Assembly (NCBI GenBank): GCA_965224245.1
Contig: OZ245046.1
Location: forward strand, 928,001 to 992,000
DNA length: 64,000 bases
Direction: 5' to 3'
Source of the DNA: Candidatus Eiseniibacteriota bacterium
GTDB lineage: Bacteria; Eisenbacteria; RBG-16-71-46; CAZAMP01
This document shows, piece by piece, positions 5,581 to 28,900 of this stretch (the stretch's first letter is position 1; each line of letters starts with the position of its first letter). The notes beneath the pieces were generated by a model, which was given only the letters and a program-made list of their open reading frames with translations, was not told the DNA's origin and ran no database searches. Made by a program: the position numbers and the translations under genes.

Positions 5581-5690
5581 GACCCCCTCCGGTTGAGTCC
5601 GGGGATCGTACCCTACCGGTGCGTCCCCCGGGGAGTGCTGACTGCGGGCCAGTGAGGGGGCAAGGCGGCAGGCCGGCTCACGGTCGCTCC

Positions 5691-9669: not shown

Positions 9670-12600
9670 CTAGGGCCGGGACCGCGCGATCACGAGCTTT
9701 CGCGTGGCCGAGCTCAGCGCGTTCCTCACGCGCACGAAGTAGACGCCGCTGGTCACGTCGACGCCGTTGGTGCTCTTCCCGTCCCAGGTGACCGTGTGCA
9801 TGGGACCTCGGAACGACCCCGTGGCGACCGTCCGGACGCGCCTTCCGAGGACGTCGAGGATCATGACTTCCGTCGGTATGGGCGCGCCTCCCAAACTCGA
9901 CGCGAACGTGATCGACAGGCTACCTCCCCGGTACGGTACCGGACGCAGGACCGGGATCTGGACGGACGGCGTCGCGCCCGTATTCACCGTCTCACCCAGA
10001 TACAGTTCCTCGCCGAGACCGTTGATTGCGAACAACCGATACGAGTCGCCAGTCCTGCCATCGATGTCGTGATGGCTCGTCCCGGTCGTGTGCGTCACCA
10101 GCACGACGTACTCACCGCTACTCGACTTGTCCAGGCGATACCCGCTGAGGTCCTGGGGCCCGGGGTCGGTGTCCCATGAGACCACGAGTCCCGATCCGCT
10201 CGATGACGGCGAGACACGGAGCATGAGAAGCGAGACCGAGGTCTCGATCGTGAAGAGCGACTCGCTCTCGGCGATAGAGTGTCGGTAGATGAAGGTGCCA
10301 AAGTCGTTGGCATCCTCGCGGCGCTCCACTCGAACGAGCGAGAACCTCGACGGTGTATGGGGCACGAGCACGTCGTAGCTTCCGCCCGACACGCCCGTGG
10401 CAACCGACGTGTACGTGCTGCCACCGTCGACCGAGAGCGCGACGTCCACCGTTCCCTCACCGTCCCACGTCACCGATCTCGTTGCGCCGACGGGCCATAC
10501 GTCGCCCCCGGATGGACTCGCCAGCTCCACTGCGCCCGAGGCGTATCTGAGATCCTGGCTCGACGCATCCCGGTAGCCGATGTGCGGGTTGCCCTGGGCA
10601 TCCAGGTCGATCGAGGTGAACCAACCCACGGCTCCGTCTGCTTCTACCGTCTCTATCCTCCAGCTGCCCCAGATCTTCACGGCGTATCGGAGATCGGCAG
10701 TGCCCCAATCGTAGTAGCTGATGTGAGGACGACCTTCCGTGTCGAGCACGATCGATGTGAACTCTCCTCCGCTTGCCTCCGGTCCGTCCACGGCCTCGAT
10801 GGTCCAACCCCCTGATGTCTTGACCGCATACTTGAGATCGAAGTTCGTTGCGTCGTAGTAACTGATGTGGGGCCTGCCCTCGTCATCGATCGCAATCCAC
10901 GAGTGAAAGCCAACCGATCCCGTCACATCGACGGTGTCCGTCGCCCAGAATCCACCCGTCTTCACCGCATACTTGAGACTCGCATTCGTGACATCGTGAT
11001 AGCTGATGTGAGGAACATCGTCGTCATCGACTGCGATCGACGTGTACGTGCCCACCGTTCCCGTGGCGTCGACCGTCTCGAGAGTCCAGCTGCCACCCGT
11101 CTTGACCGCGTATCGGAGGTCGCCGTTCGTCCAGTCGTAGTGGCTGATGTGCGGATTGTCCTGCCCATCCATCGCGATCGAGCCGAACTCGCCCTTGACG
11201 TCCACCGCATCTACCGTCTCCGTCGTCCAGGTACCGCCGGTTCTCGTCGCGTACTTGAGATCGAAGTTCGTGACGTCGCGGTAGCAAACGTGCGGGACTC
11301 CCTCGCTATCCAGTGCAATTCGTGTGAACTGACCCACAACACCGGCCGCGTCCACCGTCTCTGTCACCCAGCTGCTCCCCGACTTGACCGCGTACTTCAG
11401 GTCTGCGTTTGTGCCGTCGTAGTAACTCATGTGCGGAACACCCCGCGCATCGAGTGTTAGCGACGCGTCAAAGCCCACGTCGCCCACCGCGTCCACCGTC
11501 GTCGTCCACCAGGGCACTACGCGGTCGGGGGAGATGTCGAACAAGGCGGGAGACGCCGACGACGAGAACGGGCTCGACCGTTCGATTCTTACGCGGGCGT
11601 GTTCCGTGTCGATTGCGGGCACGCTCACCATCGCACTGCCACCAGTCACAAACGACGTCAGCGGCACATACGAGAGACCACCATCGGCGGAGAGCAGGAT
11701 ATCCACGTCGCCGGCCCCTCTCCACGTCACCGTCTCCTGAGAGCCGCGAACCCAATGGTCACCGCCGAGAGGAGACGTGAGGTGGATCGCCGAATCGCTC
11801 AGCCTGAGATCCCTGTCTCCGTCCTGGTAGTAGCTGATCAATGGGTTGTCCTGACGGTCGAGGGCAATCGACGAAAACCTCCCGGCCCCGGATTGATCCA
11901 CCGTCTCGGTCAACCAGCCTCCACCACTCGTTCTCGCGGCGTGTTTCAGGGCGCCGGCGGCGCCGTCGTAGTAGCTGATGCGGGGAAGCCCTCCGCTGTT
12001 GATCGCGATCGATGTGTGGGAGCCTGTCGCGTCGACCGTCTCGATCAACCACGCGGCCATCTTCGCGGCGTACTTGAGCGCGCCGGTTCCATCGTCCCTG
12101 TAACTGATGTGCGGAATGCCCTGGGCGTCGAGCGCAAGCGATATGTACGTAATCGAGGACGCCGATGCACTCGCCGTCTCTATCTGCCAACCCCCCGCGG
12201 CGTTCACCGCGTAGACGAGTTCCAGAGTCGTGAAGTCCAGATACGCGACGTGCGGTCTGTCGAGTCCGTCGACTGCGATGGACGTGTACCTACCGACATC
12301 TCCGACGATGTCGACGTTGTCGATCGTCCATGAGCCGCCGCTCTTGAGAGCGTATCTCAGGTTACCGTTGGTCGCATCGTAGTAGGTGATGTGGGGCCTG
12401 CCCTGTCCGTCGAGGTCGAGCGCGCAGTACGATCCGACATCGCCGGCGGCATCGACCGTCTCGGTGCTCCAGCTCCCACCGGTCTTGACGGTGTACTTCA
12501 GGTCGCCGTCGCTGAAGTCGTAGTGGCAAATGTGAGGAACGCCCTGTTCGTCGATTGCAATGGACGTGTACTGACCGACCCAGTTCGTGGCAAAAGGCGT

Positions 12601-12840
12601 CTCGATTACCCAGGTGCCATTCGATCTCGTTGCGTACTTGAGGTCGCGATTGAGCTCATCGAAGTAGCTGACGTGAGGATTGCCCTGGGCGTCCAGAGCG
12701 AGCGACGTGTACTGACCGACCTGACCGCCCGTATCGACGTCTTCGTGTACGAACGGCGTGGTCGCACGAGCGACGGTGCCGATCGTCGATACGCTCGTGA
12801 TGCAAACCACGATCATCACGGAACAGCGGGCGTTGGTCAT
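9670..12840 (-). CDS. Exported double 7-bladed beta-propeller protein (ETVD..G.VG..TSIALD..G.PHISYYD...DLKYA repeats) + Ig-like + FN3-like + FlgD-Ig CTD
   Basis: Likely start ATG 12840 (AGGA upstream, signal peptide MTNARCSVMIVVCITSVSTIGTVARA). 7 repeats, Ig-like LTSP.GG..W..GS...VTW, 7 repeats, second Ig-like domain, FN3-like domain, CTD. Paralog of 29358-32525. Confidence 0.88.
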   Translation of the reverse strand: MTNARCSVMIVVCITSVSTIGTVARATTPFVHEDVDTGGQVGQYTSLALDAQGNPHVSYFDELNRDLKYATRSNGTWVIETPFATNWVGQYTSIAIDEQGVPHICHYDFSDGDLKYTVKTGGSWSTETVDAAGDVGSYCALDLDGQGRPHITYYDATNGNLRYALKSGGSWTIDNVDIVGDVGRYTSIAVDGLDRPHVAYLDFTTLELVYAVNAAGGWQIETASASASSITYISLALDAQGIPHISYRDDGTGALKYAAKMAAWLIETVDATGSHTSIAINSGGLPRISYYDGAAGALKHAARTSGGGWLTETVDQSGAGRFSSIALDRQDNPLISYYQDGDRDLRLSDSAIHLTSPLGGDHWVRGSQETVTWRGAGDVDILLSADGGLSYVPLTSFVTGGSAMVSVPAIDTEHARVRIERSSPFSSSASPALFDISPDRVVPWWTTTVDAVGDVGFDASLTLDARGVPHMSYYDGTNADLKYAVKSGSSWVTETVDAAGVVGQFTRIALDSEGVPHVCYRDVTNFDLKYATRTGGTWTTETVDAVDVKGEFGSIAMDGQDNPHISHYDWTNGDLRYAVKTGGSWTLETVDATGTVGTYTSIAVDDDDVPHISYHDVTNASLKYAVKTGGFWATDTVDVTGSVGFHSWIAIDDEGRPHISYYDATNFDLKYAVKTSGGWTIEAVDGPEASGGEFTSIVLDTEGRPHISYYDWGTADLRYAVKIWGSWRIETVEADGAVGWFTSIDLDAQGNPHIGYRDASSQDLRYASGAVELASPSGGDVWPVGATRSVTWDGEGTVDVALSVDGGSTYTSVATGVSGGSYDVLVPHTPSRFSLVRVERREDANDFGTFIYRHSIAESESLFTIETSVSLLMLRVSPSSSGSGLVVSWDTDPGPQDLSGYRLDKSSSGEYVVLVTHTTGTSHHDIDGRTGDSYRLFAINGLGEELYLGETVNTGATPSVQIPVLRPVPYRGGSLSITFASSLGGAPIPTEVMILDVLGRRVRTVATGSFRGPMHTVTWDGKSTNGVDVTSGVYFVRVRNALSSATRKLVIARSRP

Positions 12841-13077
12841 TTGTGGAGTTCCTACCAGCACCACGACGACGACCTCGCGTACACGGCCGCAGTTTGCGGC
12901 TGTTACCTCTACTATTATATCCCGGTGGCGACGAGGTGGACGGCGTAGTGTCCGAGCACTGGAACACGCGGAAACAGGCCCACTTACGAGACCCAGGGTC
13001 TCTGGATGAGTGAGTCCATCCACCTGCGAGTGCTTCCGGCCACGTTCTCCCAGCGCCGACGTCAGGGTCGTTTCACG

Positions 13078-14537: not shown

Positions 14538-17500
14538 TCAACGCCAGTCACCCGCGACGACGAAGCCCGCCCAGAAGAACGGATGCGCGCTCGACCCCGA
14601 AGCCCGGCGAGCCACGAGCACGTCGAGGCTCGCCCCGCGCGCGGCATCGTCGATCGGCAGCGCCTCGACGAAGCGTTTCTGGTAGAACGCGCGCATCCAC
14701 GCCCGCGCGGACTCGTCTTCGACGGCCCAGAGGCTCATCACGATCGTGCCGACGCCGGCAGTCTCGAATGCACGGCGAAGACCGAGCACCCCCTCGCCGG
14801 TGGTGATCGTACCCAGGCCCGTGTCGCAGGCCGAGAGCACCGCCAGGTCGACCGCCGTGAGATCCAGCGACGCGATTTCCTCCGCGGTCAGAATGCCGTC
14901 CTCGTCGGCGGGTGTCGCCTCGGCGCGGAGATTGGCACCCGCCAGCGCCAGTCCGGAGAGAAGAAGCGGATTCTCTCCCGCGTCGGCACCCGGCCCCTGC
15001 GTGGCGCGAGCGACGCCGCCGATCCCTCGCCGTGACGGCGCCGAACGGCACTGTTCTCCGAGAAAGAAGCCGTGCGTTGCCAGGTGCAGAACTCGATACC
15101 CGGGGGCCGACTCCTTGAAGTGAGCCTCGCTCGCCTCGCGTCCGATCCTGAGGTACGGCTCGGGCAGTGCGGCGCGACGCCAGAGCTCGGCCACCTCGCG
15201 CGCCTCTTCCACCGCCGCAGGCAGGTCCTCGAAACGAAGCGCCCGGAAATCGCCACAAGCCGACCGCCGCCCGCGATTCCGCGGTGCCGACCCGGGCGAT
15301 GCGTGCGGAGGATCGCCCGTCCACGTCGCCGCCGCACTCGCGGGTCCAACTGGGGTCGCCGGGCCGACATGCGCCGTCGCACCGTCGGCGATCCCGAGCC
15401 GTGTTGGGTCTCCGGAGCCGGCGAACGGTGCCGGGGAGTCGAAGCTCGGGCCCCCGAGCGCGAGCAACGCCCCGGTGGAAGCGTTCCTCGGCGGTTGCAC
15501 GAGATCTCGCTCCGCGGACAGATGGTGAAGTGTAGGTCCCGTTTCGAGGAGAAAGTGCGCATCCTCGAGCGGCAGGGAGGAGAAGCTGACGAGGTGGAGC
15601 GGCCCCGCGGGTACGACGAAGACTCGACTGGCGTTTTCCAGAAGAGAGGCCAGCGGGTCCCAGATCAGCTCCGCAAGCTCCCGTCCGGCGCGGGTGTAGC
15701 GGCGCACGTCATCTCCGTCGTGACCGGGGGCGCTCCCGAACGTCGCCTCCTTGCGCCAGGTCGATATCGCGGCGTCGACCAGCGCCGCGTCTCCGATGGG
15801 GACCAAGGACACGCGACCGCCATCCGACAGCACGAAGGCGACATAGACCGGACTCCCATCTCGCAGCCCCCGGTCCGACACGTGTGCGAAGGCGATGAGC
15901 GCGGCACGCGGTTCGAGGGTCTGCATCACCTCGGACAACCCGGTTCGCTCCCGCGTCAGCTCGTGCCGAAAGGAAGCGCTTCGAGCCGCCAGCGCCTCTT
16001 CGAGCGACTCCTTTTCGTGACGAGCCGCATCGAGAGCGGTCCGGTACTCCGCGGGCTCGGCGTCCCCGATCCCGCGCACGACGAGGTCCGCCAGGCGCTT
16101 TCGCGACGCGGCGGTTCTGGCGGCGAGCTCCCGTGTCTCGGCGTCACCGGCGAGCCATACACGACGGTTGCGTGCCGCCATCTCGTCGAGGACGAGTGCA
16201 CGCGCCTTGATCAAGGCGTCCCAGGCGTCCTGGATCACGCGACGATCGCGCTGGTCGAGCGCGATGGAGATCGCAATGTCGAGCCCGGCCTCACGGTATG
16301 CGGCGTATGTCAGCGCCTCGCGTTCCGGAAGTGATCTCGACGTCAACCGGAAGTGAGCACGGAAGATCTCTTCCGACCGGAGCGCCAGGCGCGCTGCCGT
16401 GCGCCAATCACCCGTCGCCAACGAGTTGAGCGAGCGCTCTCGTAAGACCTCGCTCAGGACCGGATGCTCGGGTCCGAGAGAACGTTCGAAGATCTCCTGC
16501 GCTCGGGCGATGTGCCGTTCGCAGTCCTCGAGCTCGCCGAAGTGCGCGTGATGTCGGGCGAGCTCGAGATGTGTCTCGGCCACCTTCGGGTGCCCGTCGC
16601 CCAGCACGCCCTCACGCAGGCGCAGCGCCCGCTCCATGTCCTCTCGAACTCCGTGCACGCGACCGAGCTCGCGATGCGCCATTGCCCTCGCCGCGACGAT
16701 GCTGGCGATCTCGAGCTGGTTCGCGTCGGGATCGGCTTCGAGAATCGTGAGCGCGCGCTCGAGGTATGCGAGTCCGGAATCATACTCCCTCTGAGCGAGC
16801 AGGAGCGATCCGAGCTTCGACAATCGGCGACCCAGCCACACGCTCTCCGGTGCATGCGCCTCGCTTATCGCAACGGCACGCTCCAGTAGAAGCCGTGCAT
16901 CCTCCAGATTGCCCATCTCGGAGTACAGGACGGCCAGGTTGGACATGACCGTGGCGAGCTTCGGATGCGTCGGCGGGAGCGTCCGCTCGCGGATCCGAAG
17001 CGCCTCCTCGTATGCGCTTCTGGCCCCGGAGTAGTCTCCGGTCGTGTAGCGCAGAATGCCGAGCGAGCTGTAGTTCGCGGCCAGAATCGGGCTGTCCGGG
17101 GGGCCGTACAGCGTGTTCAGCTGGATGGCTCTTTCCAGGTAGGCATGCGCCGCATCGAGCTCGTCCGTGCGCCACGTGAGCATGCTGAGATTGCCGAGAA
17201 CGCTCGCGGCTCGGAGCGGTTCGAGGCCTGGAAGCGCGTCGTAGATCGCGAGCGCTCGCAGATAGCATGCACGCGCCACCGAGAGATCGTCGCTCTGGAA
17301 GTTCACGAGGCCGAGCGCGTTCAACGTGCGTGCCAGCTCGAGCGAGTCGACGGGCGCCGAGGCCTCCTGGATGGACAGCGCCTCCTCGAACGCCGTCTCG
17401 GCATCCGCCAGTCGACCGCGCACGCGCAGCGCGGATCCGAGATTCCTGACGCTGAGTGCAACGTCTAGGCCCGCAACGCCGACGATGGATTTCTTGATGT

Positions 17501-17819
17501 CGATCGCGCGCCGGGCGACGGCCTGTGCCTCGTCCTCGCCGGCCTTGCCACCGCGCCAGAGTGCCTCGGCGAGAAGATCGAGCACCCGGGCGGTCTCGAT
17601 CGTCCGGGCACCGGACTCGGCCTCGACGTCGGCCAGCAGCTCGCGAGCGGCGTTCTCAGCCGTCGCGTACCCGCCTTCGGCGAGCATCACGCGGATCTCT
17701 TCGAGTGGATCGAACGCGGAGCTCTCCGATGCGCTTGCCATCGTCACGATGCCGATCAGCAGCCCGACGCACAGGACCGTCGGACCTCCACTCGAGGCGA
17801 GATGCATGTCTATTCGCAT
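14538..17819 (-). CDS. Exported TPR-CHAT (caspase HetF-associated, clan CD) protease
   Basis: GAGGAG RBS before ATG 17819; signal-like VLCVGLLIGIVTMASA; tandem TPRs; CHAT domain with catalytic His (HLATHGFF) and Cys (LSACDTGLG); ends HPFFWAGFV. Confidence 0.92.
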   Translation of the reverse strand: MRIDMHLASSGGPTVLCVGLLIGIVTMASASESSAFDPLEEIRVMLAEGGYATAENAARELLADVEAESGARTIETARVLDLLAEALWRGGKAGEDEAQAVARRAIDIKKSIVGVAGLDVALSVRNLGSALRVRGRLADAETAFEEALSIQEASAPVDSLELARTLNALGLVNFQSDDLSVARACYLRALAIYDALPGLEPLRAASVLGNLSMLTWRTDELDAAHAYLERAIQLNTLYGPPDSPILAANYSSLGILRYTTGDYSGARSAYEEALRIRERTLPPTHPKLATVMSNLAVLYSEMGNLEDARLLLERAVAISEAHAPESVWLGRRLSKLGSLLLAQREYDSGLAYLERALTILEADPDANQLEIASIVAARAMAHRELGRVHGVREDMERALRLREGVLGDGHPKVAETHLELARHHAHFGELEDCERHIARAQEIFERSLGPEHPVLSEVLRERSLNSLATGDWRTAARLALRSEEIFRAHFRLTSRSLPEREALTYAAYREAGLDIAISIALDQRDRRVIQDAWDALIKARALVLDEMAARNRRVWLAGDAETRELAARTAASRKRLADLVVRGIGDAEPAEYRTALDAARHEKESLEEALAARSASFRHELTRERTGLSEVMQTLEPRAALIAFAHVSDRGLRDGSPVYVAFVLSDGGRVSLVPIGDAALVDAAISTWRKEATFGSAPGHDGDDVRRYTRAGRELAELIWDPLASLLENASRVFVVPAGPLHLVSFSSLPLEDAHFLLETGPTLHHLSAERDLVQPPRNASTGALLALGGPSFDSPAPFAGSGDPTRLGIADGATAHVGPATPVGPASAAATWTGDPPHASPGSAPRNRGRRSACGDFRALRFEDLPAAVEEAREVAELWRRAALPEPYLRIGREASEAHFKESAPGYRVLHLATHGFFLGEQCRSAPSRRGIGGVARATQGPGADAGENPLLLSGLALAGANLRAEATPADEDGILTAEEIASLDLTAVDLAVLSACDTGLGTITTGEGVLGLRRAFETAGVGTIVMSLWAVEDESARAWMRAFYQKRFVEALPIDDAARGASLDVLVARRASGSSAHPFFWAGFVVAGDWR

Positions 17820-17875
17820 CGTCATCTCCTCGACGGACGGTCCGCACAATCATAGCGCAGAGGAGGGGGGGTTGC

Positions 17876-19639
17876 TCAGGGAGGGCTCGGACCGGGGTTC
17901 TCGAGCACGACTTCACGCAGCCAGACGCCTCGGACCGTCTCACGTCGGTCCGTGAGACGCTCGACCATCCCGAAGACACGGCCGACGCCGTCGCCGGTCC
18001 CCGGAGCGGCACCCGACGAGAGCCCCCCGATCCCGCGCAGCCGACCGATCGCTCGTTCACCCAGCCGAACCGCGGCAACGTCAACGGGCGCATCGGCTTT
18101 GGGCAGTCCGAGCTCGACGATCTCGCGCTCGAAGTCATCGAGCCTCTCGACGCTCGCCACGATCAGCACGTGCTCGCGTCCACCGGAAGTCGTCACCTTC
18201 CAGTAGTACTCTTCTCCGTGGAGAGGGCCCGGGAGTCGATGAGACTCGTCGGCCTTCAGGGGATTGTCGAGATCGTATCCGGGCAGTGGAAAGAGAAGAA
18301 ACGCGTCGCCGCTCTCGTCCTCCGAGACCACGTACACGTAGACATCGCGCGATGCCTGGACCACCAGGAAGAGCTCGTCTCCGGGCGACACGGTCGATCC
18401 GGGTACGAGTCGCTGCGAGGCCGCATCGGCGTGCCGGAGGAGTCGCGCCTCGACCTGATAGCTTTGACCGGCGGCGAGGAACGCTCCGGAGCGAACGAGA
18501 AGCGTGAACAGCACGATACCCGCCGCAATCAGGAGCATCCAGCGCCCACGCCGAAACGCGGGGATCGCCTCCACGCGATCGAGCGTTGCGGTAAGCGCTT
18601 CCTCCATTGCGCCGGCGCTCTCGAACCGCTCCTGGGGATCGGACGCGAGTGCGCGCTCCACGGTCTGCGCGAAGGCAGGGATGACGTCGGGCCTGGCATC
18701 GCGGAGCAACGTCTTGCGTCGTTCGGCGTGCGCCTGGCGCAGCTCGCGGAGGCTCTTCGCCTCGACCGGGTACGCTCCGGTCACCAGATGATGAAGGAGC
18801 ACACCGAGCGAGTAGAGGTCGGACCGAGGACTGGCGACGCCGTCGCGGAGCACCTCGGGCGCCATGTACAGCGGCGTGCCCGCTCTTCCGTGCACCTCGG
18901 CACCACCGTCGGGCGCGTCCTCATCGATCTCACGTCCGATGCCGAAGTCCATCAACACGATCCGGCCTCCGGCCTCGCGCATGACGTTCTGTGGCTTCAC
19001 GTCACGGTGAACGAGACCCGCGGCGTGCACGGCCGCCAACGCTCGACAGACGTCGACGCCGATGAGGGCCGCTTCGCGCGGGCTGAAGCGTCCGCGCGAA
19101 GCCAGAATCTCCTCGAGGGATTCCCCGCGGACGAGCTCCATCCAGATCCCGATCATCCCGTCGCGCGCATCGGCCCCGTGCACGGTCACGACGTTCGGGT
19201 GTCGAATGCGGGCGAGACGCCTCCCCTCGTCCACCACGGCCGGCACGGCGTCGGTCTCTGCAGGGTCGGAGGTCGTGCGATCGGGTCCCGCCCGGGGTCT
19301 GATCAGCTTCAGCGCTACCTCCCGCACGAGGCGCGCATCCCGGGCTCGATAGACCTCTGCAAACGACCCGGTCGCGATCCTGTCGATGATCTCGAGATTA
19401 CCCCAGCGCCACGGCATGGTGACGTCCAAGGGATCGTCGGGCCACTGCTCACCCGGAGGTTCGCCGATCCAGGCCTGGGATCGATGGAACTCGGCGATGC
19501 CCTCGACCACACGGAGCAAGTGCAGCGTGTCCCGGTCGCCCGGACCCACGCACGCGTCCTCGACCGCGTCCCAGTCGATGGCGCGGCCGTCCGAGATCGA
19601 CGCGGCGAGATCGATCAGTCGATTCTCTCCGGCGCTCAT
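17876..19639 (-). CDS. Membrane Ser/Thr protein kinase with N-terminal helical extension and C-terminal DUF4384-like domain
   Basis: GSFAEVY, VALK, HRDVKPQN, DFG, YMAPE; TM WMLLIAAGIVLFTLLV; PGDELFLVVQASRDVYVYVVSEDESG..FLLFP; ATGA overlap with the sigma gene. Confidence 0.9.
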   Translation of the reverse strand: MSAGENRLIDLAASISDGRAIDWDAVEDACVGPGDRDTLHLLRVVEGIAEFHRSQAWIGEPPGEQWPDDPLDVTMPWRWGNLEIIDRIATGSFAEVYRARDARLVREVALKLIRPRAGPDRTTSDPAETDAVPAVVDEGRRLARIRHPNVVTVHGADARDGMIGIWMELVRGESLEEILASRGRFSPREAALIGVDVCRALAAVHAAGLVHRDVKPQNVMREAGGRIVLMDFGIGREIDEDAPDGGAEVHGRAGTPLYMAPEVLRDGVASPRSDLYSLGVLLHHLVTGAYPVEAKSLRELRQAHAERRKTLLRDARPDVIPAFAQTVERALASDPQERFESAGAMEEALTATLDRVEAIPAFRRGRWMLLIAAGIVLFTLLVRSGAFLAAGQSYQVEARLLRHADAASQRLVPGSTVSPGDELFLVVQASRDVYVYVVSEDESGDAFLLFPLPGYDLDNPLKADESHRLPGPLHGEEYYWKVTTSGGREHVLIVASVERLDDFEREIVELGLPKADAPVDVAAVRLGERAIGRLRGIGGLSSGAAPGTGDGVGRVFGMVERLTDRRETVRGVWLREVVLENPGPSPP

Positions 19640-20229
19640 TCGCGCATCTCCCTGGCGAGCTTCACCAGCGCTCGCGATACCGTCATGCGGGCTGCGTCGG
19701 CCGACGACTTGCTCAGCGCTACGGCAATGTGGCCGTAGCTACAGCCCATCTCGATCCGTGCGATGACCGCTTCGCGCTCGACCTCGCCGAGGCGCGCGAG
19801 CGCGGACTCGTATCGCCCGACCATCTCGCGTCCGATCGTCTCGTCGAGTGGAGACGGAGTTCGATCGTGATCCGAGTGCCAGATCTCATCCGGACCCGGC
19901 GCCCGGGTCGCACGACGCACCTCGTCGCGGATCCGGTTCAGAACGGCTTGCCGCATGTACGCCTGAAGCGCCCCCTCGCCGCGGTTCTGGAAGTCGTCAA
20001 TCCGGTCGAGGGTGCGAAGCACCGTGTCTTGCACGAGGTCGTCGGTATCGAGAAGGCCGCGCGCGCGGTTCGGGAGTCGGCCGGACGCCCATCGGCGCAG
20101 CCTCGGAAGGTAGCGTGCGCAGAGGCGGTCCAGGGCTCCTCGATCGCCCCGTCTGGCGAGCTCGAGAAGCTCGACGGACGACTCCATCGGGTTCCCGGCG
20201 TGATCGGGGGTCCGGTCGTCTCCGGCCAT
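19636..20229 (-). CDS. ECF-type RNA polymerase sigma-70 factor
   Basis: LARRGDRGALDRL..RYLPRL, DTDDLVQDT, region 4 LARLGEVEREAVIARIEMGCSY..IA...ARMTVSRAL; start uncertain (20271, 20229 or 20187). Confidence 0.92.
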   Translation of the reverse strand: MAGDDRTPDHAGNPMESSVELLELARRGDRGALDRLCARYLPRLRRWASGRLPNRARGLLDTDDLVQDTVLRTLDRIDDFQNRGEGALQAYMRQAVLNRIRDEVRRATRAPGPDEIWHSDHDRTPSPLDETIGREMVGRYESALARLGEVEREAVIARIEMGCSYGHIAVALSKSSADAARMTVSRALVKLAREMRE

Positions 20230-20340
20230 CCTTCCGTCCGCTCCAGGGTTCGCGCCGAACTGCGCGGTCAATCATACCCAGGATGACGGCTCGTGCCCGC
20301 TACCAAATCGACGAACCCGACCAGATTCGCTCGCTCGTCG

Positions 20341-20886
20341 TCATCGGACGAGCACCATCCGGTGCGTCTTCACGTACGCATCCGCCTCGAACCGGATGAA
20401 GTAGATCCCCGAGGCCACCGGGCTGCCGTGGTCATCGCGCCCGGCCCACCGAACCGACTTGTATCCGGGCTGCTCGTCGCCGTTCACGAGCGTTCGGACG
20501 AGACGCCCGGACGGCGCGTACACGCGCAAACGCACGGTGCCCCCGGGTGGGGGAACGTCGTACCGGATCTTCGTGACCGGATTGAACGGGTTCGGCGTGT
20601 TTGGATGAAGTCGGAACTGCTCTGGAAACGGGCCGCTCGGGTCGTGCGTGGAGAGAAGGGTCGTGGTGTCCGGCCGCGCCTCCCGGAAGCCCGAGGCGAT
20701 ACCGTAGCTCGTCGAGCCGGCCCGTCCCGCGATCGCCTGACCGTGTGTCGTGCGGAGCGCATACCGGCTCGTGGCCGTGCCGGAGCCGCCGGCGCTGAAC
20801 ACGTGACGCACGATCCCGACGGACGCGACGGCACTCGAACCACCGGCAACGAGCGCGACGAGCCAGATGAGGTCTCTGATCTTCAC
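20341..20886 (-). CDS. Small exported protein: short Gly/Ser-rich N-domain plus FlgD-Ig CTD
   Basis: AGGAGGAG RBS, signal peptide, VFSAGGSG..TSRYALRTTHGQAIAG..GSTSYGIASGF, then PNPFNPVTKIRY...SGIYFIRF. Confidence 0.85.
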   Translation of the reverse strand: MKIRDLIWLVALVAGGSSAVASVGIVRHVFSAGGSGTATSRYALRTTHGQAIAGRAGSTSYGIASGFREARPDTTTLLSTHDPSGPFPEQFRLHPNTPNPFNPVTKIRYDVPPPGGTVRLRVYAPSGRLVRTLVNGDEQPGYKSVRWAGRDDHGSPVASGIYFIRFEADAYVKTHRMVLVR

Positions 20887-20952
20887 GACTACGTCTCCTC
20901 CTCTCCAGAACGCGCACCTTCGAGCTCTCGGCGACGGTGCATCGGTAGAACC

Positions 20953-22821
20953 TCACTGCAGGCTGATGAGAACCAGTACGAGCCCCTGACCGCTCGACAG
21001 CGCCGACATCGCCTTGCCGACGATCGCTCCCGAGGAGCGCGACGGGTCGACGGCACGCATGACGTGACCCGGTGTCTCCGATGTCGTCAAGGGATCGCCG
21101 GGCTCGATCGGTCCCGCCGCCGCGTCGGCGAGCGCGTACACGCGCCCGCCGATCGCGACGTGCTGATCTCCTTCGAGCACGCCGACCTGAGCCAGCGTGA
21201 GTCCGGGTCGCACGCCGCCGGCGCCGCTGATGACTCCCGCCACGCGGCGGTCGTACGCGTGCCGGCTCATGGCGAGGTGCCCGGGCCGCTCGCGGTCGAT
21301 CACGACGACGGTTCCCGGCACCAGCGTCTCGGAATCGGACATTGGAAACGGCTCCGCCACGTCGGAGCCGCCGGTGATCTCGAGCACCCGGGTCGTCGTC
21401 GTACCCGACATGCCGTCCAGCTCGATGGTGGTGGTATAGCCGCCGTTCTCGACCTGGACGTTGCCCGGGACCCCGCCCCCGATGCGGACGCCGCCGGCCG
21501 CTCGGACGAACATCTGGTTCTCGGCGGTCGTGTTGAGGTCCATGTCCAGTCCGTCCGCGATCGCGATGGATCCGTAGTGCCAGACGTTGGCGCGGCGTCC
21601 GACGGCGAACGAGTAGCCGCCCCCCGCGAAGCAGTCTCGGCCGCCGGCGACGGCGGAGTAGTGGCCCGCGGCGCTGTTTCCATACCCACCCGCAACCACG
21701 CTGTAATCGCCGAGGGCTTCGTTCTGCCGTCCGGCACCCGCACGCGCGTGGGAGCCGCTCGCAACGTTGTCCTCACCGCCGCCGATGGCCGCGTAGTCGC
21801 CGCTGGCCTCGTTGCCGTAACCGCCGGCGACTGTCGCGCCGAATCCGCTGGCCGTGTTGCTCGCCCCGCCGCCGACCGCGGCCAGCGCGGAGTTGAGGAC
21901 ATCGGCATCGTCGCTGCCGGCCGTGTTGCCGTTGCCCCCGGCGATCGTTCCCCAGGAATCGGTGACGACGTTCGGGGAGGGAGTGCCCAGAACCTGGACG
22001 CCACCGCCACCGATCGTGGCGCCCTTGACGTCCGCGCTCACCGAGTTGATGCTCATCCCGCCGATCACGTTGGGGCCCGAAGCGGTCGTTCCGTCATACG
22101 CAACCGGTTCCAGCCGGAGCGCGATCGCGTTGTCCACCTTGAACACCAGGCGCTGGTCGTCGGTCGTTCCGATGAACTCGGAGCCGGGATCGGTTCCCGC
22201 GTTTCCATCGAGCAACCAGACGTCCGACATCATGATGTCGGAGGCCGAGGTCTGAGTGGTTCCGTCGGGAAACTTGAACCCGCCCGAGGTCGACCATACG
22301 GTCTCCGAAACCGTCACGTTCCCCGTGGCGGTGAGATCTCCGGATACGGTGAAGTCGTGGAGCGCTCGCTCGGCCGACTCGGCATGAAGGGCGAACGGTG
22401 CGCTCACGATTCGCTGATCGTCCATCTGCTCGAAGGGCTCTGCGAGATCCGTCGTCAGCCAGATCCGGAGGTAGCATTCGGAGCTCTCGTCGAGAAGATC
22501 CGTCGTGAGCGCGTCCATCGGCGCTTCACCGAGATCGACGCTGTATACGCCCTCGTCGACGTCGACGGAAACATACCAGTCCGTGGGCTCGCTGCCGCCG
22601 ACGCTGGATCCGTCGTGGGACCAGAGCGTGTTTGCACCGGCATCGACGATCGCGAACTTGAAGTACGCCGTGCCATCGAACGCGGTGTCCGGTTCTCCGT
22701 CGGAATCGGTGTCCTCCTCGAGAACGCCCTGAGTATTCATGATCGTTGCCTGCGCGTGCACCTCGGCACAGAACGCGAAGCCGAGCGTGATCCACGCGAG
22801 ACTGACGAGAGTCGTGTTCAT
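20953..22821 (-). CDS. Exported fibre/adhesin-like protein with Gly-rich 14-aa repeats and peptidase-G2-like C-terminal chaperone domain
   Basis: True start likely ATG 22821 (GGAGG RBS, signal MNTTLVSLAWITLGFAFCAEVHA); the ORF-track extension overlaps the upstream gene. Repeats GG..N.ASG..[SA].[VI].GG; C-terminal GSDVAEPF...AYDRRVAGVISG...GKAM. Confidence 0.8.
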   Translation of the reverse strand: MNTTLVSLAWITLGFAFCAEVHAQATIMNTQGVLEEDTDSDGEPDTAFDGTAYFKFAIVDAGANTLWSHDGSSVGGSEPTDWYVSVDVDEGVYSVDLGEAPMDALTTDLLDESSECYLRIWLTTDLAEPFEQMDDQRIVSAPFALHAESAERALHDFTVSGDLTATGNVTVSETVWSTSGGFKFPDGTTQTSASDIMMSDVWLLDGNAGTDPGSEFIGTTDDQRLVFKVDNAIALRLEPVAYDGTTASGPNVIGGMSINSVSADVKGATIGGGGVQVLGTPSPNVVTDSWGTIAGGNGNTAGSDDADVLNSALAAVGGGASNTASGFGATVAGGYGNEASGDYAAIGGGEDNVASGSHARAGAGRQNEALGDYSVVAGGYGNSAAGHYSAVAGGRDCFAGGGYSFAVGRRANVWHYGSIAIADGLDMDLNTTAENQMFVRAAGGVRIGGGVPGNVQVENGGYTTTIELDGMSGTTTTRVLEITGGSDVAEPFPMSDSETLVPGTVVVIDRERPGHLAMSRHAYDRRVAGVISGAGGVRPGLTLAQVGVLEGDQHVAIGGRVYALADAAAGPIEPGDPLTTSETPGHVMRAVDPSRSSGAIVGKAMSALSSGQGLVLVLISLQ

Positions 22822-22835
22822 GATCGGCGCCTCCG

Positions 22836-25415
22836 CTATTTGATCTCCACGACACCGGGACCCCACCCGGTGACGCGGCCGTGTTTGTAGAACGCGATCG
22901 GGGCTTCCGTGTAGGTCCCCGGTCGGATCGCGATCGTCGTGCCGATGCCGGCGGCATCGATGGCCTCGCCGACGGTGTCGTACGGGCTGGCCATCGAACC
23001 GTTCTCGAAGCCCGAAGCCTGCTCGTCCACGTACACGACATCCAGAGGCCGACATCGAAACATCCCGCGGCCATGCGTGGCGGCGATGAGGTTGTCGCCA
23101 CACCAGAAGAGGTCGTCGACTTCGACGTTTGCGGGTCCCTCGTTGGCGGGATAGTTCGTCATCACGCTCCAGCGCTGTCCGCGATTCTCGGACGCGAATA
23201 CGCCGAGATCCGTCCCGGCGTACATCCAGTCCGTGTTCGCGGGATGGAACTGGATCGTGTTCACCGGGATGGCCGGGAGATCGTCCGGAGCATCTCCTGA
23301 CCGCTGGACCCACGTCGATCCACCGTCGAAGGTGACCCACACGTTGTCCGGTTCATATCGGGAATAGGTGACCGCGACGATGTTGACCTCGTCCGGACAG
23401 ATCGCGATGTCGGTGACCCACCGGCTCACCGGTCCGGCGATCGTCGTCCACGTCGTCCCCCCGTTTCCGGACATACCGAGCGTGCCGTCGTCGTAGCCCA
23501 CCCAGACGAAGTTCCGGTCCGACTGAGCGACGTCGATGGCGCTGCAGAACGCATCGCTCGGGACGGGGCTTCGTACCTCGTACCAGCTCTCTGCGTAGTC
23601 AGACGTCTTCCAGATGCTCTTGCCGCCCGCGTAGAGAACGTGGGACGCCACGGGATCCATCGTGAACGGCGCGATGAAGAGCGCGGACACGCCGGCATCG
23701 CCGAGACCCGTCACCTTCGACGCCCACGTGGCGCCACCGTCATCGCTTCTCTTGATCTGGAGGTTTATGTACTCGCCGTACAGAATGCTCGGATCGTTGA
23801 AGTCCACGGCGCAGTATCCGCCATCTCCGGACTCGGCCTGAAACCAGCTGCCCGTCCCGCCCCCGGTGAGCCGCAGCGTGCTGTTGTCCTGCGTCCCGCC
23901 GATGATGACCGTACCCGCAGGATCGGATGCTCCACCGTAGAACTGCGTGATTCCGAGGTTGTCAGCGAGATTCGTCCAGCTGGTTTCGGTTGCCGTTCGA
24001 ATGTTCTGCACCATCTGGACGCCACCGTCGTTTCCGACGTAGACGCGAAGGTCGCTTCCACCGTAGCCCGGGATGGGCACGATCGCGTGTTGATCCGCGT
24101 GTGCGCTCGACCCATCGACGTGATAGAGATGCCAGTCGCTGATCTTCGTGAGCGTCACGCCCTCATCATCGCTTCTCCAGAGGTCGAGTCCGCCGACGAC
24201 CATGTCGAACGGAAACGTCTGGGGTGCCACCCAGATCGCATTCGCGTAGTCGCCGATGTTGCCGGCCGAATTGGAGAGGTAGCCGTAGCCCGTACACTGC
24301 CGAGTCCACAGTGAGCCGGTGTCGTCGGTGGAACGCCAGATCTCACCGTCATTGCGTTGCATCGAGATGTACATGTGCGCCGAGCCCTGGTGAAACGCCA
24401 CCTCACATCGCCCCGGGTCGACCGGGAAGCCGGGAGTGCTTCGGAAGGAAGTCCAGCTTGCACCGTCGTCCGGCGAGTAGTACCCATCGCTGGACGTACC
24501 GACGAGGATCCGGTTCGCGGAGGTCGGGTGGATCTCGATGTCGAGCGCCGGGCCCGTGGTCGCGAGCGCGGAGTCCCACGAGAGGCCTCCATCGGTGCTG
24601 CGCCACACCGTGTGTGGATGGACCGTCCAGTCGTCGGATCGGGTCGTCGCCCACAGCTCTCCGCTGCGGGCCGGATGGTGCGCGAGGCGGGTCACCCATC
24701 GGAACATCTCGTTGTCCGTGCTTGACAGCTGGAACCACGTGCTCCCGTGATTCGTGCTCTTGAAGATGCCCGCGCCCGGCAGTCCGCCCCCCAGCTGGTC
24801 TCCTCCGCTCAGGAACCCCTCGCCGGTCGACGCGTACAGGACTTCGGCATCGAACGGGTCCTGGACGATCGACGTGACGCCGAGGTTCGCCATGAAGTCG
24901 TCGATCAGCTGCCAGCTGCTCGCGGTCGGCGGACGCTTCCAGAGTCCGCCGGTGACGCCACCGATCCACAGCGTGCCGTCTGACTCGATGTGAAGCGCTC
25001 GTACGCGTCCGCCGATGTTCCCCGGGCCCAGCCAGTCCCAGTTCCAGATCCCGGCGTCTCGCTGCCCCGAACGCATCCGGTCCACTTGGTCCTTGGCGGA
25101 GGCCAGCGCTCCGATGGGGATCTGGCCGTCCTCGCCGGCTCGTTGGCGGCGCCGCTCCTCGGCCAGACCGTGCGGGTGCTCGGGGATGCGGTCACTCTCG
25201 GTAGTCAGCTTCGTGCCGGTCACATGCTCGCTACGCTCGATGCCCGGCGGATGAGCCGGCTCCTGCACCGGAACTCCGGTGCGCTGGTCGAGGATCGGAA
25301 GGACCACGGCGGTGCCGATCGCGATCGCGACCGCCGAGCGTTCGAGCGTTCGTGTACGGGTTCGTCGTTTCACGTGGCTCGCCTCCATCATCGGGAGCCG
25401 GTTCACTGTCCCCAC
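22836..25415 (-). CDS. BNR/Asp-box (VPS10/sialidase-like) beta-propeller protein with C-terminal DUF1565-like domain
   Basis: W.WLGPGNIGGRVRAL, many S.D.G.[ST]W Asp-boxes, HADQHAI, GNDGGV, GGTQDN, AATHGRGMF; tail VYVD.....NGS..SPYDTV.EAI...PGTY. Start uncertain (ATG 25391 possible). Confidence 0.85.
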   Translation of the reverse strand: MGTVNRLPMMEASHVKRRTRTRTLERSAVAIAIGTAVVLPILDQRTGVPVQEPAHPPGIERSEHVTGTKLTTESDRIPEHPHGLAEERRRQRAGEDGQIPIGALASAKDQVDRMRSGQRDAGIWNWDWLGPGNIGGRVRALHIESDGTLWIGGVTGGLWKRPPTASSWQLIDDFMANLGVTSIVQDPFDAEVLYASTGEGFLSGGDQLGGGLPGAGIFKSTNHGSTWFQLSSTDNEMFRWVTRLAHHPARSGELWATTRSDDWTVHPHTVWRSTDGGLSWDSALATTGPALDIEIHPTSANRILVGTSSDGYYSPDDGASWTSFRSTPGFPVDPGRCEVAFHQGSAHMYISMQRNDGEIWRSTDDTGSLWTRQCTGYGYLSNSAGNIGDYANAIWVAPQTFPFDMVVGGLDLWRSDDEGVTLTKISDWHLYHVDGSSAHADQHAIVPIPGYGGSDLRVYVGNDGGVQMVQNIRTATETSWTNLADNLGITQFYGGASDPAGTVIIGGTQDNSTLRLTGGGTGSWFQAESGDGGYCAVDFNDPSILYGEYINLQIKRSDDGGATWASKVTGLGDAGVSALFIAPFTMDPVASHVLYAGGKSIWKTSDYAESWYEVRSPVPSDAFCSAIDVAQSDRNFVWVGYDDGTLGMSGNGGTTWTTIAGPVSRWVTDIAICPDEVNIVAVTYSRYEPDNVWVTFDGGSTWVQRSGDAPDDLPAIPVNTIQFHPANTDWMYAGTDLGVFASENRGQRWSVMTNYPANEGPANVEVDDLFWCGDNLIAATHGRGMFRCRPLDVVYVDEQASGFENGSMASPYDTVGEAIDAAGIGTTIAIRPGTYTEAPIAFYKHGRVTGWGPGVVEIK

Positions 25416-25481: not shown

Positions 25482-25908
25482 CGCTTTCTGGAAACCGCGA
25501 AGCCCGGACATTGAGCCTCGCCGACGTGTCTGCGGAGGCCAAGAACTGGGTGCACGAGCACTCCGACGCAAAGATGCACGTGCTCGTGGTGGGTGGAGCC
25601 TCGCCGGACAGGTTTTCGCGCTTCTAGCAACGGGCGGCACCCGATCGCCCGTTCGGGGCCACGCACGGCCTCGTGTGTGACCGCTCGGGCCTTCCGACGG
25701 TCGGTCACGGATCGTGTCCTGATCCTCCCCGGGGGTCGATCCCGTTCGTCTCGCACATTCCCCGCTGACCCCAGCCTCTGAGCCACTCACCCCCTCATTG
25801 TGGTCAGACCCTCGACCAGCGTGTGTACTGGGTCCGAATGTCGCTCGGAGCGACAGCGACCTGGAGGGTGGTGGCCTCCAAGAACTCCGCCAGAAAGGAA
25901 GCCAGCCC

Positions 25909-28900
25909 ATGCGCATGGTTCACCGGGATCCAGAGCGAATCGACGCGGTTCTCGCGCTTCTCACCGGGTGCGCGTCGGTTCTGGTCGGTCTGACGATCAC
26001 GTCGCTCGGTCTCGCCGGCCTGCCGGGCTCCGCCCGGGCCGGCTCGCAGAGCTTCACCGAGGACTTCACCACCACCACGTTCAAGGACCCGGTCTACACC
26101 ACCGCCGACTGGGACACCGTTTCGGGCGAGCTCAAGCTGCTGCCTTTCGTGCCTTCTCTCGTCGGGGCCTACGACACGCCGGGTTCCGCGCAGGGCGTCA
26201 CGGTGGCGGGTGGCCTGGCCCTCGTGGCGGACGGGAGCTCCGGTCTCCAGATCGTGGACATCACCGATCCGTCGGCGCCGACGCTCGTCGGGACCTACGA
26301 TACGCCGGGTTTCGCGCAGGGCGTCACGGTGGCGGGTGACCTGGCCCTCCTGGCGGACGGGAGCTCCGGTCTCCAGATCGTGGACATCACCGACCCGTCC
26401 TCGCCGATGCTCCTCGGGACCTACGATACCCCGGACTACGCCTATGGTGTCACCGTGGCGGGGGATCTGGCATTCGTGGTGGACGACCAGTCCGGTCTCC
26501 AGATCGTGGACATCACCGATCCGACGGCGCCGACACCCGTCGGATCCTACGACACGCCCGCAAACGCCGTTGGCGTCACGGTGGCGGGGGATCTCGCCTT
26601 CGTGGCGGACTACGCGTCCGGTCTCCAGATCGTGGACATCACCGATCCGTCGTCGCCCACGCTCGTGGGGACCTGCGATACGTCGGGTTTCGCGCAGGGC
26701 GTCACGGTGGCGGGTGACCTGGCCCTCGTGGCGGACGGGAGCTCCGGTCTCCAGATCGTGGACATCACCGATCCCTCGTCGCCCACGTCCATCGGGGCCT
26801 ACGATACGTCGGGGTTCGCCCTCGGCGTCACGGTGACGGGTGATGTCGCCCTGGTAGCGGACGATGTGTCCGGTCTCCAGCTCGTGGACGTCACCGATCC
26901 CTCGGCGCCCACGCTCATCGGGACCTACGATACGTCGGGATCCGCTTACGGTGTCGCGGTGGCGGGCGGGCGCCTGGCCTTCGTGGCAGACGATGCTTCC
27001 GGTCTGCGGATCGTGAACGTCGCCGATACATCGCCGGTGACGTTTGTCGGGGCCCACGACACCCCGGGTCGGGCCTATGGCGTCTCGGTGGCGGGGGACC
27101 TCGCCTTCGTGGCGGACGATACGACCGGCCTCCAGATCGTGGACATCGCCGATCCATCGTCGCCGACGCTCGTCGGGACCTACGATACGCCGGACCTCGC
27201 CCGTGGCGTTACAGTGGCGGGGGACCTGGCCTTCGTGGCGGACGGGAACGCCGGCCTCCAGATCGTGGATGTCACCGATCCGTCGGCACCGACCCTCGTG
27301 GGGGTCTACGATACGCCGGGCTTCGCCTCTAACGTCACGGCGGCGGGGGACCTGGCCCTCGTGGCGGTCGGGAGCTCCGGCCTCCAGATCGTGGACATCA
27401 CCGATCCGTCGGCGCCGACGCTCGTCGGGACCTACAGCACGTGGCAACCCATCCTGGGCGTGACGGTGGCGGGGGACCTCGCCTTCGTGGCGGCCTACGG
27501 TAACGGGCTCCAGATTGTGGACATCAGCAATCCGTCCGCACCGACGCTCGTCGGGAGCCACGATACGCCGGGCCTCGCCCACGGCGTCGCGGTGGCGGGG
27601 GATCTCGCCTTCGTGGCGGACTACGAGTCCGGTCTCCAGATCGTGGACATCACCGATCCGTCAGCACCGACGCTCGTCGGGACCTACGATACGCCGGGCC
27701 GCGCCCACGAAGTCGCGGTGGCGGGGAACCTCGCCTTCGTGGCGGACTGGGACTGGCTTTCCGGTCTCCAGATCCTGGACATCACCGATCCATCGGCGCC
27801 GACGCTCGTCGGGAACTACGATAGCCCGGACTCCCCCTATGCCGTCACGGTGGCGGGGGACCACGCCTTCGTCGCGGACAGGAACTCCGGTCTCCGGATC
27901 GTCGAGTTCGCCCAGCATGACTGGGGCACGACGATCCAGAACGCCGGTCGGTCGCTGGTCGTGGACGGTGCGGACGACGCCATCGTGCGCGCCCGACTGA
28001 CGTCGACGCAGCTCGACGGCGTTCCCTGGATCTGGGAGCTGAGCTCCGACACGGGAGAGAACTGGACGCCGATCGCGCCCACGAGCACGTGGACCCGTTT
28101 GACGGATCCCGGAAGCGATCTCGTGTGGCGCTCGACGCAAGAGGTGGCAGGCGCCGTGAACCCCAGCGTGTCGGAGCTGACGATCGATTGGCTGAACGCG
28201 TTCGCACCGCTCCTTTCGATCACGGATGTGCCGGACGACCAGGGGAGACGCGTCGAGCTCTCGTTCACGCGGTCGGGCTACGACTTCGCCGACGAGGTGG
28301 AGCTGCCGGTGGTCGGGTACGCGGTCTATCTCCGGGTCGACGACGAGGCGAGAGCCGCCGAGGTCGTGAAGGACGGCGCGGCGCCGGCGCCGGCCGAGCT
28401 GGAGGGTTCTCCGCTCGACTCCTACGGGGCCTCCCGGGTCCGTGCGCTGGGAGATGACCGCTTCGTCCTCGGGGGTGATCTGGCGCGCGGGAGTGCGTTC
28501 CCTCCCGGTGTCTGGGAATCGGTGGCGTGGGTGCTGCCCACCCAGAGCGATCAGTACACGAGGGAGACGTTCACGTTCGCCGACTCGACGTCGGCCGGCA
28601 ACCACTGGTCGGTGTTTCTCACGGCCACGCACACCTCGGACCCGTCGATCTGGTTCACCAGCTACCCCGACAGCGCCTACTCGGTCGACAACATCCCGCC
28701 GAGCATTCCGACCGGGCTGGCGCTCGTGGGCACGGAGCTCTCCTGGGATTCCGCGTCCGAGTCCGACTTCGAGTACCACAGCGTGTACGGCTCGGCGACG
28801 GCGGGGTTCGATGGCACGGCAGCCCTGATCGGGTACACGGTCGATCCGACCTACGACGTGTCCAGCGAGTCGTATGCGTTCTATCACGTGACCACGACCG

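Follow-up and report, generated by a model that had tools for sequence, protein, structure and literature searches.

A sigma factor with a Ser/Thr kinase and an exported CHAT protease that share an Arg-Gly motif followed by co-varying residues: a candidate trans-envelope signalling module in Candidatus Eiseniibacteriota

Several described systems come close to the gene cluster considered here. In the ECF43-type pairs of a sigma factor of the extracytoplasmic function (ECF) class and a kinase, such as EcfP-PknT of Vibrio parahaemolyticus and EcfK-PknS of Xanthomonas citri (PMC13147305, PMC7826278), the cognate Hanks kinase phosphorylates the sigma factor, and the DxxD of region 2.2 is replaced by an uncharged QTTA-type motif with a phospho-acceptor Thr (PMC13147305). 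For DdvA-DdvS (PMC11506125; structures 8rw5 and 8rot), cutting by a CHAT protease has been proposed as the trigger. In Craspase (type III-E CRISPR), Csx29, a protease made of tetratricopeptide repeats (TPRs) and a CHAT domain, cuts Csx30, which holds the ECF sigma factor RpoE via Csx31; some of the Csx30 substrates end in DUF4384 (10.1101/2022.08.17.504292). Herein, we discuss a three-gene locus of a Candidatus Eiseniibacteriota bacterium (assembly GCA_965224245.1) whose parts resemble those of all these systems, and whose kinase and CHAT protease carry a common Arg-Gly motif. The locus lies in a stretch of 64,000 nucleotides (contig OZ245046.1, positions 928,001 to 992,000 of the forward strand), called the window below; coordinates without a contig name refer to it. 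Neither a sigma/kinase/exported-CHAT module nor the shared motif was described in the literature searched; Iyer et al. 2020 and its supplements, which lay outside that search, may bear on this. The features in question are as follows.

19636-20271, minus strand: ECF-type sigma factor gene (Pfam and NCBIfam)
20026-20049, minus strand: sigma factor region 2.2 motif DTDDLVQD, containing Thr76
17876-19639, minus strand: kinase gene (Pfam)
17879-18460, minus strand: predicted periplasmic DUF4384-type ectodomain with C-terminal extension
18023-18037, minus strand: kinase motif RGIGG, amino acids (aa) 535-539; family consensus L-R-G-[IV]-G-G-[LVM]
14538-17849, minus strand: TPR-CHAT protease gene (Pfam)
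15015-15029, minus strand: RGIGG of the CHAT protein (aa 941-945), carried by an insertion that separates the strands of catalytic His and Cys

An initial annotation, made from the letters of the window, had described three co-oriented genes with an ATGA overlap of sigma and kinase genes, a kinase with one transmembrane segment and a C-terminal DUF4384-like domain, and a TPR-CHAT protein with a signal-like N-terminus and an intact His/Cys dyad. All of this was borne out by translation, Pfam and hydrophobicity, and RGIGG was found in both proteins with exactly the coordinates and codons given there. The kinase start lies on the sigma stop (gaATGAgc), and 26 nt separate the kinase stop from the CHAT frame. 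The first gene encodes an ECF sigma factor (sigma-70 group 4), likely beginning at Met29 (20187) or Met15 (20229). It matched Sigma70_r2 (2.3e-09, 37.4 bits; cut-off 24) and Sigma70_ECF (1.8e-05, 25.1 bits; cut-off 21.1) of Pfam, and sigma70-ECF of NCBIfam (63.7 bits; cut-off 42.9). The Pfam r4_2 score (19.5) fell under its cut-off of 25.7, and so did that of the nearest NCBIfam subfamily, Sig-70_plancto1 (77.9 bits; cut-off 183.75). The second gene encodes a single-pass Hanks-type Ser/Thr kinase (PF00069; 5.5e-42, 144.4 bits, aa 84-345, 18605-19390), in which the catalytic motifs are present (VALK at 108, HRD at 211, DFG at 231, APE at 260) and the kinase fold is preceded by an N-terminal extension of ~80 aa. 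Its sole hydrophobic segment, WMLLIAAGIVLFTLLV (aa 367-382, 18494-18541), has RRGR before it, and DUF4384 (PF14326) occupies aa 417-497 (2.2e-14, 53.7 bits; cut-off 27). The third protein is a predicted clan CD peptidase (PF12770), as profile, dyad and modelled fold agree. Its CHAT domain spans aa 720-1101 (14547-15692, minus strand; 5.6e-60, 203.7 bits), with the catalytic dyad at His926 (15072-15074) and Cys1008 (14826-14828), and the TPRs lie at ~16350-17567 (TPR_12, 3.1e-50). The likely start is Met11 (ATG at 17819), opening a predicted Sec-like signal peptide that reaches to ~17730 (N-terminus MRIDMHLASSGGPTVLCVGLLIGIVTMASA followed by SE, the end reading ASA/SE).

In the ECF43-type pairs and in our locus alike, an ECF sigma gene stands directly beside the gene of a single-pass Ser/Thr kinase (here overlapping it) with an N-terminal extension of the same ~80 aa and a periplasmic sensor, and region 2.2 holds a conserved Thr, present in 86/86 aligned sigma homologues of the loci described below and located in the stretch that is phosphorylated in ECF43. 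Unlike in ECF43, the acidic D-T-[DSE]-D is kept here instead of the uncharged QTTA-type motif (the D-T-x-D shows its first Asp in 68/86 and its last in 86/86 homologues), the sensor is a DUF4384 sandwich and not TPRs, and a dedicated exported CHAT protein with a matching motif is added. DdvA is likewise a periplasmic TPR-CHAT protein with a His/Cys dyad coupled to an ECF sigma factor. However, DdvA unites a cytoplasmic zinc-binding anti-sigma domain, a transmembrane segment and TPR-CHAT in one polypeptide, whereas our CHAT protein is a separate, signal-peptide-bearing protein without an anti-sigma domain; its membrane partner is a kinase, and the proposed target bears a motif that the protease carries as well. 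In Craspase, too, a TPR-CHAT protease and an ECF sigma factor belong to one pathway, joined in some Csx30 groups by DUF4384. When the AlphaFold2 model of our CHAT domain was searched with Foldseek, Csx29 (8eey_B) was the best match (5.2e-09), before DdvA (8rw5, 8.4e-07), separases and gingipain R. Still, Craspase is cytoplasmic and RNA-guided and cuts after Met or Leu, not Arg (PMC11506125), while the CHAT protein studied here is predicted to be exported. Among the 12 window proteins scanned with Pfam, no Cas protein was found, the Craspase partners being Cas7-11, Csx30 and Csx31. Cutting after Arg is described for the clan CD protease separase (PMC11506125) and for orthocaspases (PMC6426788). 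DUF4384 is often fused to protease domains (10.1101/2022.08.17.504292), including orthocaspase/caspase fusions (PMC7475262), and one kinase family can carry it according to a preprint atlas of Ser/Thr kinases. The association of DUF4384 with a clan CD protease is thus shared with these fusions; in our locus, the two are separate polypeptides, with DUF4384 on the kinase, and are linked by a common motif.

Taken alone, kinase and CHAT protein of the window have two pentamers in common, ESLEE and RGIGG, where 2000 shuffles led us to expect 1.93, and at least one common pentamer appeared in 16.4% of shuffles when only the CHAT domain and the ectodomain were compared. Since pentamer sharing is at chance level for this pair, the case rests on its homologues. 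We collected 100 homologous loci (genome G072 was left out of this set), and across them the motif is conserved in both families and co-varies between the partners clearly more than chance would allow. The Arg is present in 154/154 ectodomain representatives (an ectodomain alignment has it as the invariant R142) and Arg-Gly in 152/154. On the protease side, none of the 43 aligned CHAT domains lacks the catalytic His, the catalytic Cys or the loop Arg; the motif is missing from the loop of three adjacent CHATs (L097, L125 and L133).

In 45 linked pairs, co-variation was measured over 12 residues starting with the Arg; L123, whose CHAT gene is frameshifted, was excluded. Cognate partners were identical at 6.02 of these residues and non-cognate ones at 4.59, a value reached in 0/20000 permutations, and the nine variable positions gave 3.33 against 1.99 (again 0/20000). 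Drawing one locus from each cluster of 60% CHAT identity (34 clusters) yielded 0/500 permutations in every one of 200 resamplings. Two further tests are less exposed to shared ancestry. When partners were permuted within genomes (7 genomes, 19 pairs), the observed score was reached 130 times in 100000, and in genome G095 the true pairing of all four systems ranked first of the 24 possible assignments. Rare kinase states (found in no more than 3/45 sequences of a column) recurred at the same position of the partner in 17/90 cases, with 4.0 expected (0/20000); the matched states were spread over 14 loci in 12 genomes. Some partners are identical over longer runs, such as RGVGELADA in L101, RGIGGMAPA in L080, RGIGLL in L065 and RSIGGL in L001. 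The similarity begins at the Arg, and in several loci C-terminal matches extend to +8 to +11. On the N-terminal side, position -1 is Leu in 39/45 kinases and Thr, Leu, Ser or Ala in the CHAT loops; position -2 is Arg in 21/45 kinases and Gly in 30/45 CHAT loops.

Co-variation of the R-G motif between protease loop and kinase tail in homologous operons, which the initial annotation had put forward as the comparison to make, is therefore found among the linked pairs, within genomes and in the rare states. Gene conversion was considered as the source of this similarity and rejected: at positions where two partners agree in amino acid, they also agree in codon in 123/267 cases for cognate pairs and in 4160/9073 for non-cognate ones. 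The similarity is thus held at the protein level, and the partly different codons of the two window copies, taken from the start as a sign of such conservation, turn out to represent the family at large.

The genome from which the window comes provides its own comparison. It contains 16 CHAT matches and ~99 open reading frames (ORFs) that match the kinase catalytic domain (E<=1e-3), which makes both families large. Four of its kinases carry the ectodomain of interest, three of them with a sigma gene upstream and a TPR-CHAT gene downstream, and in each of these three linked systems the tail of the kinase agrees with the loop of its CHAT protein:

Window locus: kinase tail RLRGIGGL; CHAT loop SRRGIGGV
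C1:187480-192841: kinase tail LRRSIGGLGS; CHAT loop RTRSIGGLSA
C1:5477030-5485109: kinase tail RLRGAGAIAR; CHAT loop GLRGAGEIAV

The fourth kinase (C1:5273725-5276175; tail HRGVGGLTPSAGE) has no CHAT neighbour. An orphan TPR-CHAT gene situated 540 kb from it (C1:5817029-5820448) encodes the loop RRRAVSGLTPSAGV, and the two proteins have the 7-mer GLTPSAG in common right after the motif. Such a match suggests that motif matching may predict unlinked partners. At C1:3934464-3935940 of the same genome, a ninth sigma paralogue precedes an ORF of 269 aa that retains nothing of the kinases but their conserved N-terminal extension (MPTDDHLLRLANDVSLGRTPDWDAE...). This ORF may be a truncated or a kinase-less partner; a TPR-CHAT gene whose product has no motif is found ~8 kb off, at 3943650-3947045.

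Among homologous loci with enough flanking sequence, the kinase gene is directly preceded by a sigma gene in 87/94, and a CHAT gene is adjacent in 52/89 and absent in 37. The adjacent CHAT genes are mostly downstream on the same strand (43), with five convergent and four ending just upstream of the sigma gene. Absence of a CHAT neighbour does not mean absence from the genome: an unlinked CHAT of the same clade was present in 5/5 tested genomes of this kind, and all five loops had the R-G motif. Beyond the core, the match with the kinase is close in G202 (RGIGGTEPS in the kinase, RGIGGTSPV in the CHAT) and G006 (kinase RGIGALVPE, CHAT RGIGLLIPE). G199 shows a weaker match, and in G010 several CHATs are candidates. 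Of the 206 genomes of the phylum, 84 are matched by the ectodomain profile. Counting each genome once (including G072), 72 have both kinase and CHAT, 12 only the kinase, 18 only the CHAT and 104 neither, figures that ignore kinship and genome incompleteness. G092, one of the genomes counted as kinase only, holds a CHAT fragment, and LRGVGGLT is found in both of its proteins. G037 (92% complete, four contigs) has no loop-bearing CHAT, and the motif of its kinase (L114, G037:C4:28517-39186) has decayed to AMLSG (GRAMLSGSL); this single example from nature is in keeping with a dependence of the motif on the protease. In the homologous loci, the module comes without a third conserved gene. Overall, we conclude from these comparisons that sigma factor, kinase and exported CHAT protein, linked or unlinked, form a conserved unit.

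Beyond the phylum, a HMMER search of 1.84 billion representatives placed the ectodomain family at 780, 1477 and 4593 protein clusters (E<=1e-30, 1e-10 and 1e-3, respectively), and the DUF4384-type ectodomain is always C-terminal among the family matches. The ectodomain proteins P0004, P0038, P0102, P0104 and P0107 (789-1063 aa) have a TPR block between the kinase domain and DUF4384. The six longest ectodomain proteins that were checked all carry extra TPRs, and none of the six is fused to CHAT.

Would the two copies of the motif meet in the cell? The kinase ectodomain and the signal-peptide-bearing CHAT protein are both predicted to be periplasmic, which agrees with the single compartment presupposed by the initial annotation. 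A hydrophobic N-terminal leader is found in 41/42 full-length homologous CHAT frames. Moreover, Cys934 (15048-15050), seven residues before the loop Arg, is evolutionarily paired with Cys865 (15255-15257), ~70 residues upstream: among 43 CHAT domains, 28 have both residues, 15 have neither and none is discordant. That the two are kept or lost together suggests a disulfide, which fits export. In the AlphaFold2 model of the CHAT domain (mean predicted local distance difference test, pLDDT, 83.0), the motif loop (fragment residues 258-276) is disordered, with values below 50. The ectodomain is modelled as a beta sandwich (mean pLDDT 81.9), for which Foldseek gave no significant match in the PDB (best E 0.019). 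In it, Arg535 ends a disordered linker, residues 537-542 (fragment 144-149) form a beta strand in a block of pLDDT ~79, and a second disordered linker and two terminal strands follow. Both motif Args are thus modelled at exposed, low-confidence linkers. A co-fold of the CHAT domain (424 aa) and the ectodomain (194 aa), run with separate alignments and without the TPR region, scored 0.00 and is neutral on binding.

Taken together, these findings make a direct and specific link between protease and kinase likely. The initial annotation had proposed that the protease cuts or binds the kinase ectodomain at the shared motif; a direct, pair-specific functional link is what co-variation and topology support in that proposal, while cleavage after Arg is a plausible prediction. 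The reading we rank first, with a probability of roughly 0.4, is that the locus encodes a trans-envelope module in which the CHAT protease cuts the kinase tail after Arg. In this scenario, both peptides would be read by one pair-specific site, so that each system would be insulated from its paralogues. The most likely reader would be the CHAT protease, with the exposed Arg-Gly as its P1-P1' bond. It would cut the kinase tail in trans, and the loop that it carries itself would be a pseudosubstrate or a site of autoprocessing. With a cut after Arg535, the ectodomain would lose its last three beta strands, and kinase activity would change. By analogy with ECF43-type systems, the sigma factor would then be the probable target of the kinase, and the invariant Thr76 in its region 2.2 a possible site. 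We rank cleavage first because Arg-Gly is invariant, or nearly so, and exposed in both proteins, because the dyad is invariant, and because clan CD relatives cut after Arg and some Craspase substrates carry DUF4384.

It is tempting to go one step further and to suppose a bacterial protease-activated receptor kinase with a co-evolving peptide barcode, an extension that we hold only tentatively and consider rather doubtful as a whole. Each exported protease would recognise and cut only the kinase bearing its own variant of R-G-[IV]-G-G-x, and the copy in its own catalytic domain would serve as a built-in pseudosubstrate or as a site of activation. One periplasm could then accommodate several systems free of cross-talk. 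Once cut after Arg, protease and receptor would begin with the same new N-terminus, which may itself be the signal.

A number of observations weigh against cleavage or against the co-variation behind it. The modelled kinase motif is a beta strand packed into the ectodomain and not a free tail. The co-varying part is confined to the C-terminal side of the Arg, to about +11, and the N-terminal sides differ between the two proteins. Clan CD proteases usually do not read as far out as +11. With only seven clusters, at 50% identity, the co-variation had a median p of 0.012 and a maximum of 0.176, and with three clusters it was not significant. Among ten pairs of loci that are mutual nearest neighbours, cognates matched better in six, worse in three and equally in one (sign test p=0.25, a test of low power), and per-position tree tests rest on two to three independent pairs, too few to decide. 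The neighbouring CHAT was the unique best match within the genome for only 11/19 kinases (7.0 expected). G001 and G022, both fairly complete, retain the kinase motif, and a loop-bearing CHAT was found in neither. Finally, since the sigma factor retains the acidic DxxD residues of region 2.2, the charge switch of ECF43 need not apply to the last step.

Several of these points would be accommodated by non-proteolytic docking or strand competition, which explains the data nearly as well as cleavage and which we place a close second, though as less likely than not. Here, the motif, as a beta strand or linear peptide, would bind one site, perhaps on the cognate DUF4384 sandwich (an edge or a groove) or on the CHAT protein (its TPR groove), for which the loop and the kinase strand would compete. 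Complex formation and not cutting would set kinase activity, and the protease would act on other substrates or only after docking. The modelled strand of residues 537-542, held in the fold between disordered linkers, fits this view, as does the position of the CHAT copy in a disordered loop, free to reach out. A co-variation that runs to +8 to +11 and is absent N-terminal to the Arg is typical of a binding epitope, and TPR domains commonly bind extended peptides. On the other hand, both proteins have an invariant Arg and, after it, a Gly that is nearly so, bordering a disordered linker, and this resembles a scissile bond; the invariance of the dyad in 43/43 CHAT domains suggests that catalysis is under selection, and no site co-varying with the motif was identified.

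Two other explanations dispense with a contact between kinase and protease through the motif. A separate periplasmic factor (for example a processing protease, a chaperone or an enzyme of sorting or anchoring) might recognise the motif in each protein. The near uniformity of the core R-G-[IV]-G-G across systems, like that of a common tag, and the 37/89 loci without an adjacent CHAT could be understood in this way. The paralogue-specific variants, however, match their own partners within genomes, which disfavours such a third-party reader; kinase and CHAT clade also co-occur strongly by genome, and the factor has no candidate in a third gene conserved with the module. We therefore consider this explanation improbable. 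Still less credit is given to coincidence, with the motif being structural in each family for unrelated reasons and no functional link between the two. Gly-rich turns are common, the pentamer sharing of the window pair is at chance level, and the phylogenetically strict tests fall short of significance, all as coincidence would have it. Against this stand the permutation, within-genome and rare-state tests, each of which rejects independence, the identical 8-9-mers in several unrelated loci, the matching motifs of unlinked partners, and the decayed kinase motif of the near-complete genome G037; we judge coincidence very unlikely.

The surroundings of the locus are less constant. The initial annotation had suggested that the sigma factor possibly drives the neighbouring exported-protein genes. 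No link of this kind emerged: in the 160 nt upstream of 85 sigma genes, no k-mer was enriched above shuffled controls, and the neighbours are not conserved beside the module except for one 795-aa protein (six loci). Those without conservation beside the module in homologous loci include an ORF of 407 aa located downstream of the CHAT gene, as well as the BNR/FlgD_ig protein and the sortilin-like one. A gene at 20953-23340 (minus strand), immediately upstream of the sigma gene, encodes the exported protein of 795 aa; an internal start, MNTTLVSLAWITLGFAFCAEVHA, resembles a signal peptide, Gly-rich repeats (GGxGNxAxG type) are present, and Pfam gave no match. Its homologues are encoded directly 3' of the CHAT gene in six other loci (L065, L068, L074, L085, L098 and L100; E 1e-27 to 1e-36). 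A plus-strand ORF that overlaps this gene (20293-22890) is probably spurious. Many of the large neighbours (5619-8258, 9670-13023 and 25798-29253) end in an FlgD_ig-type C-terminal domain, and a second kinase with TPRs is encoded at 3283-5580.

We believe that the module provides a concrete, testable answer to two questions, namely what periplasmic CHAT proteases target and how ECF sigma factors linked to kinases sense the outside, since both the bond and the partner can be named and specificity variants exist in nature. It also concerns a family of some breadth, the ectodomain being represented by at least 780 protein clusters. Should the motif be a true barcode, it would represent a new way to insulate paralogous signalling systems from one another and a possible source of orthogonal protease/receptor pairs for synthetic biology.

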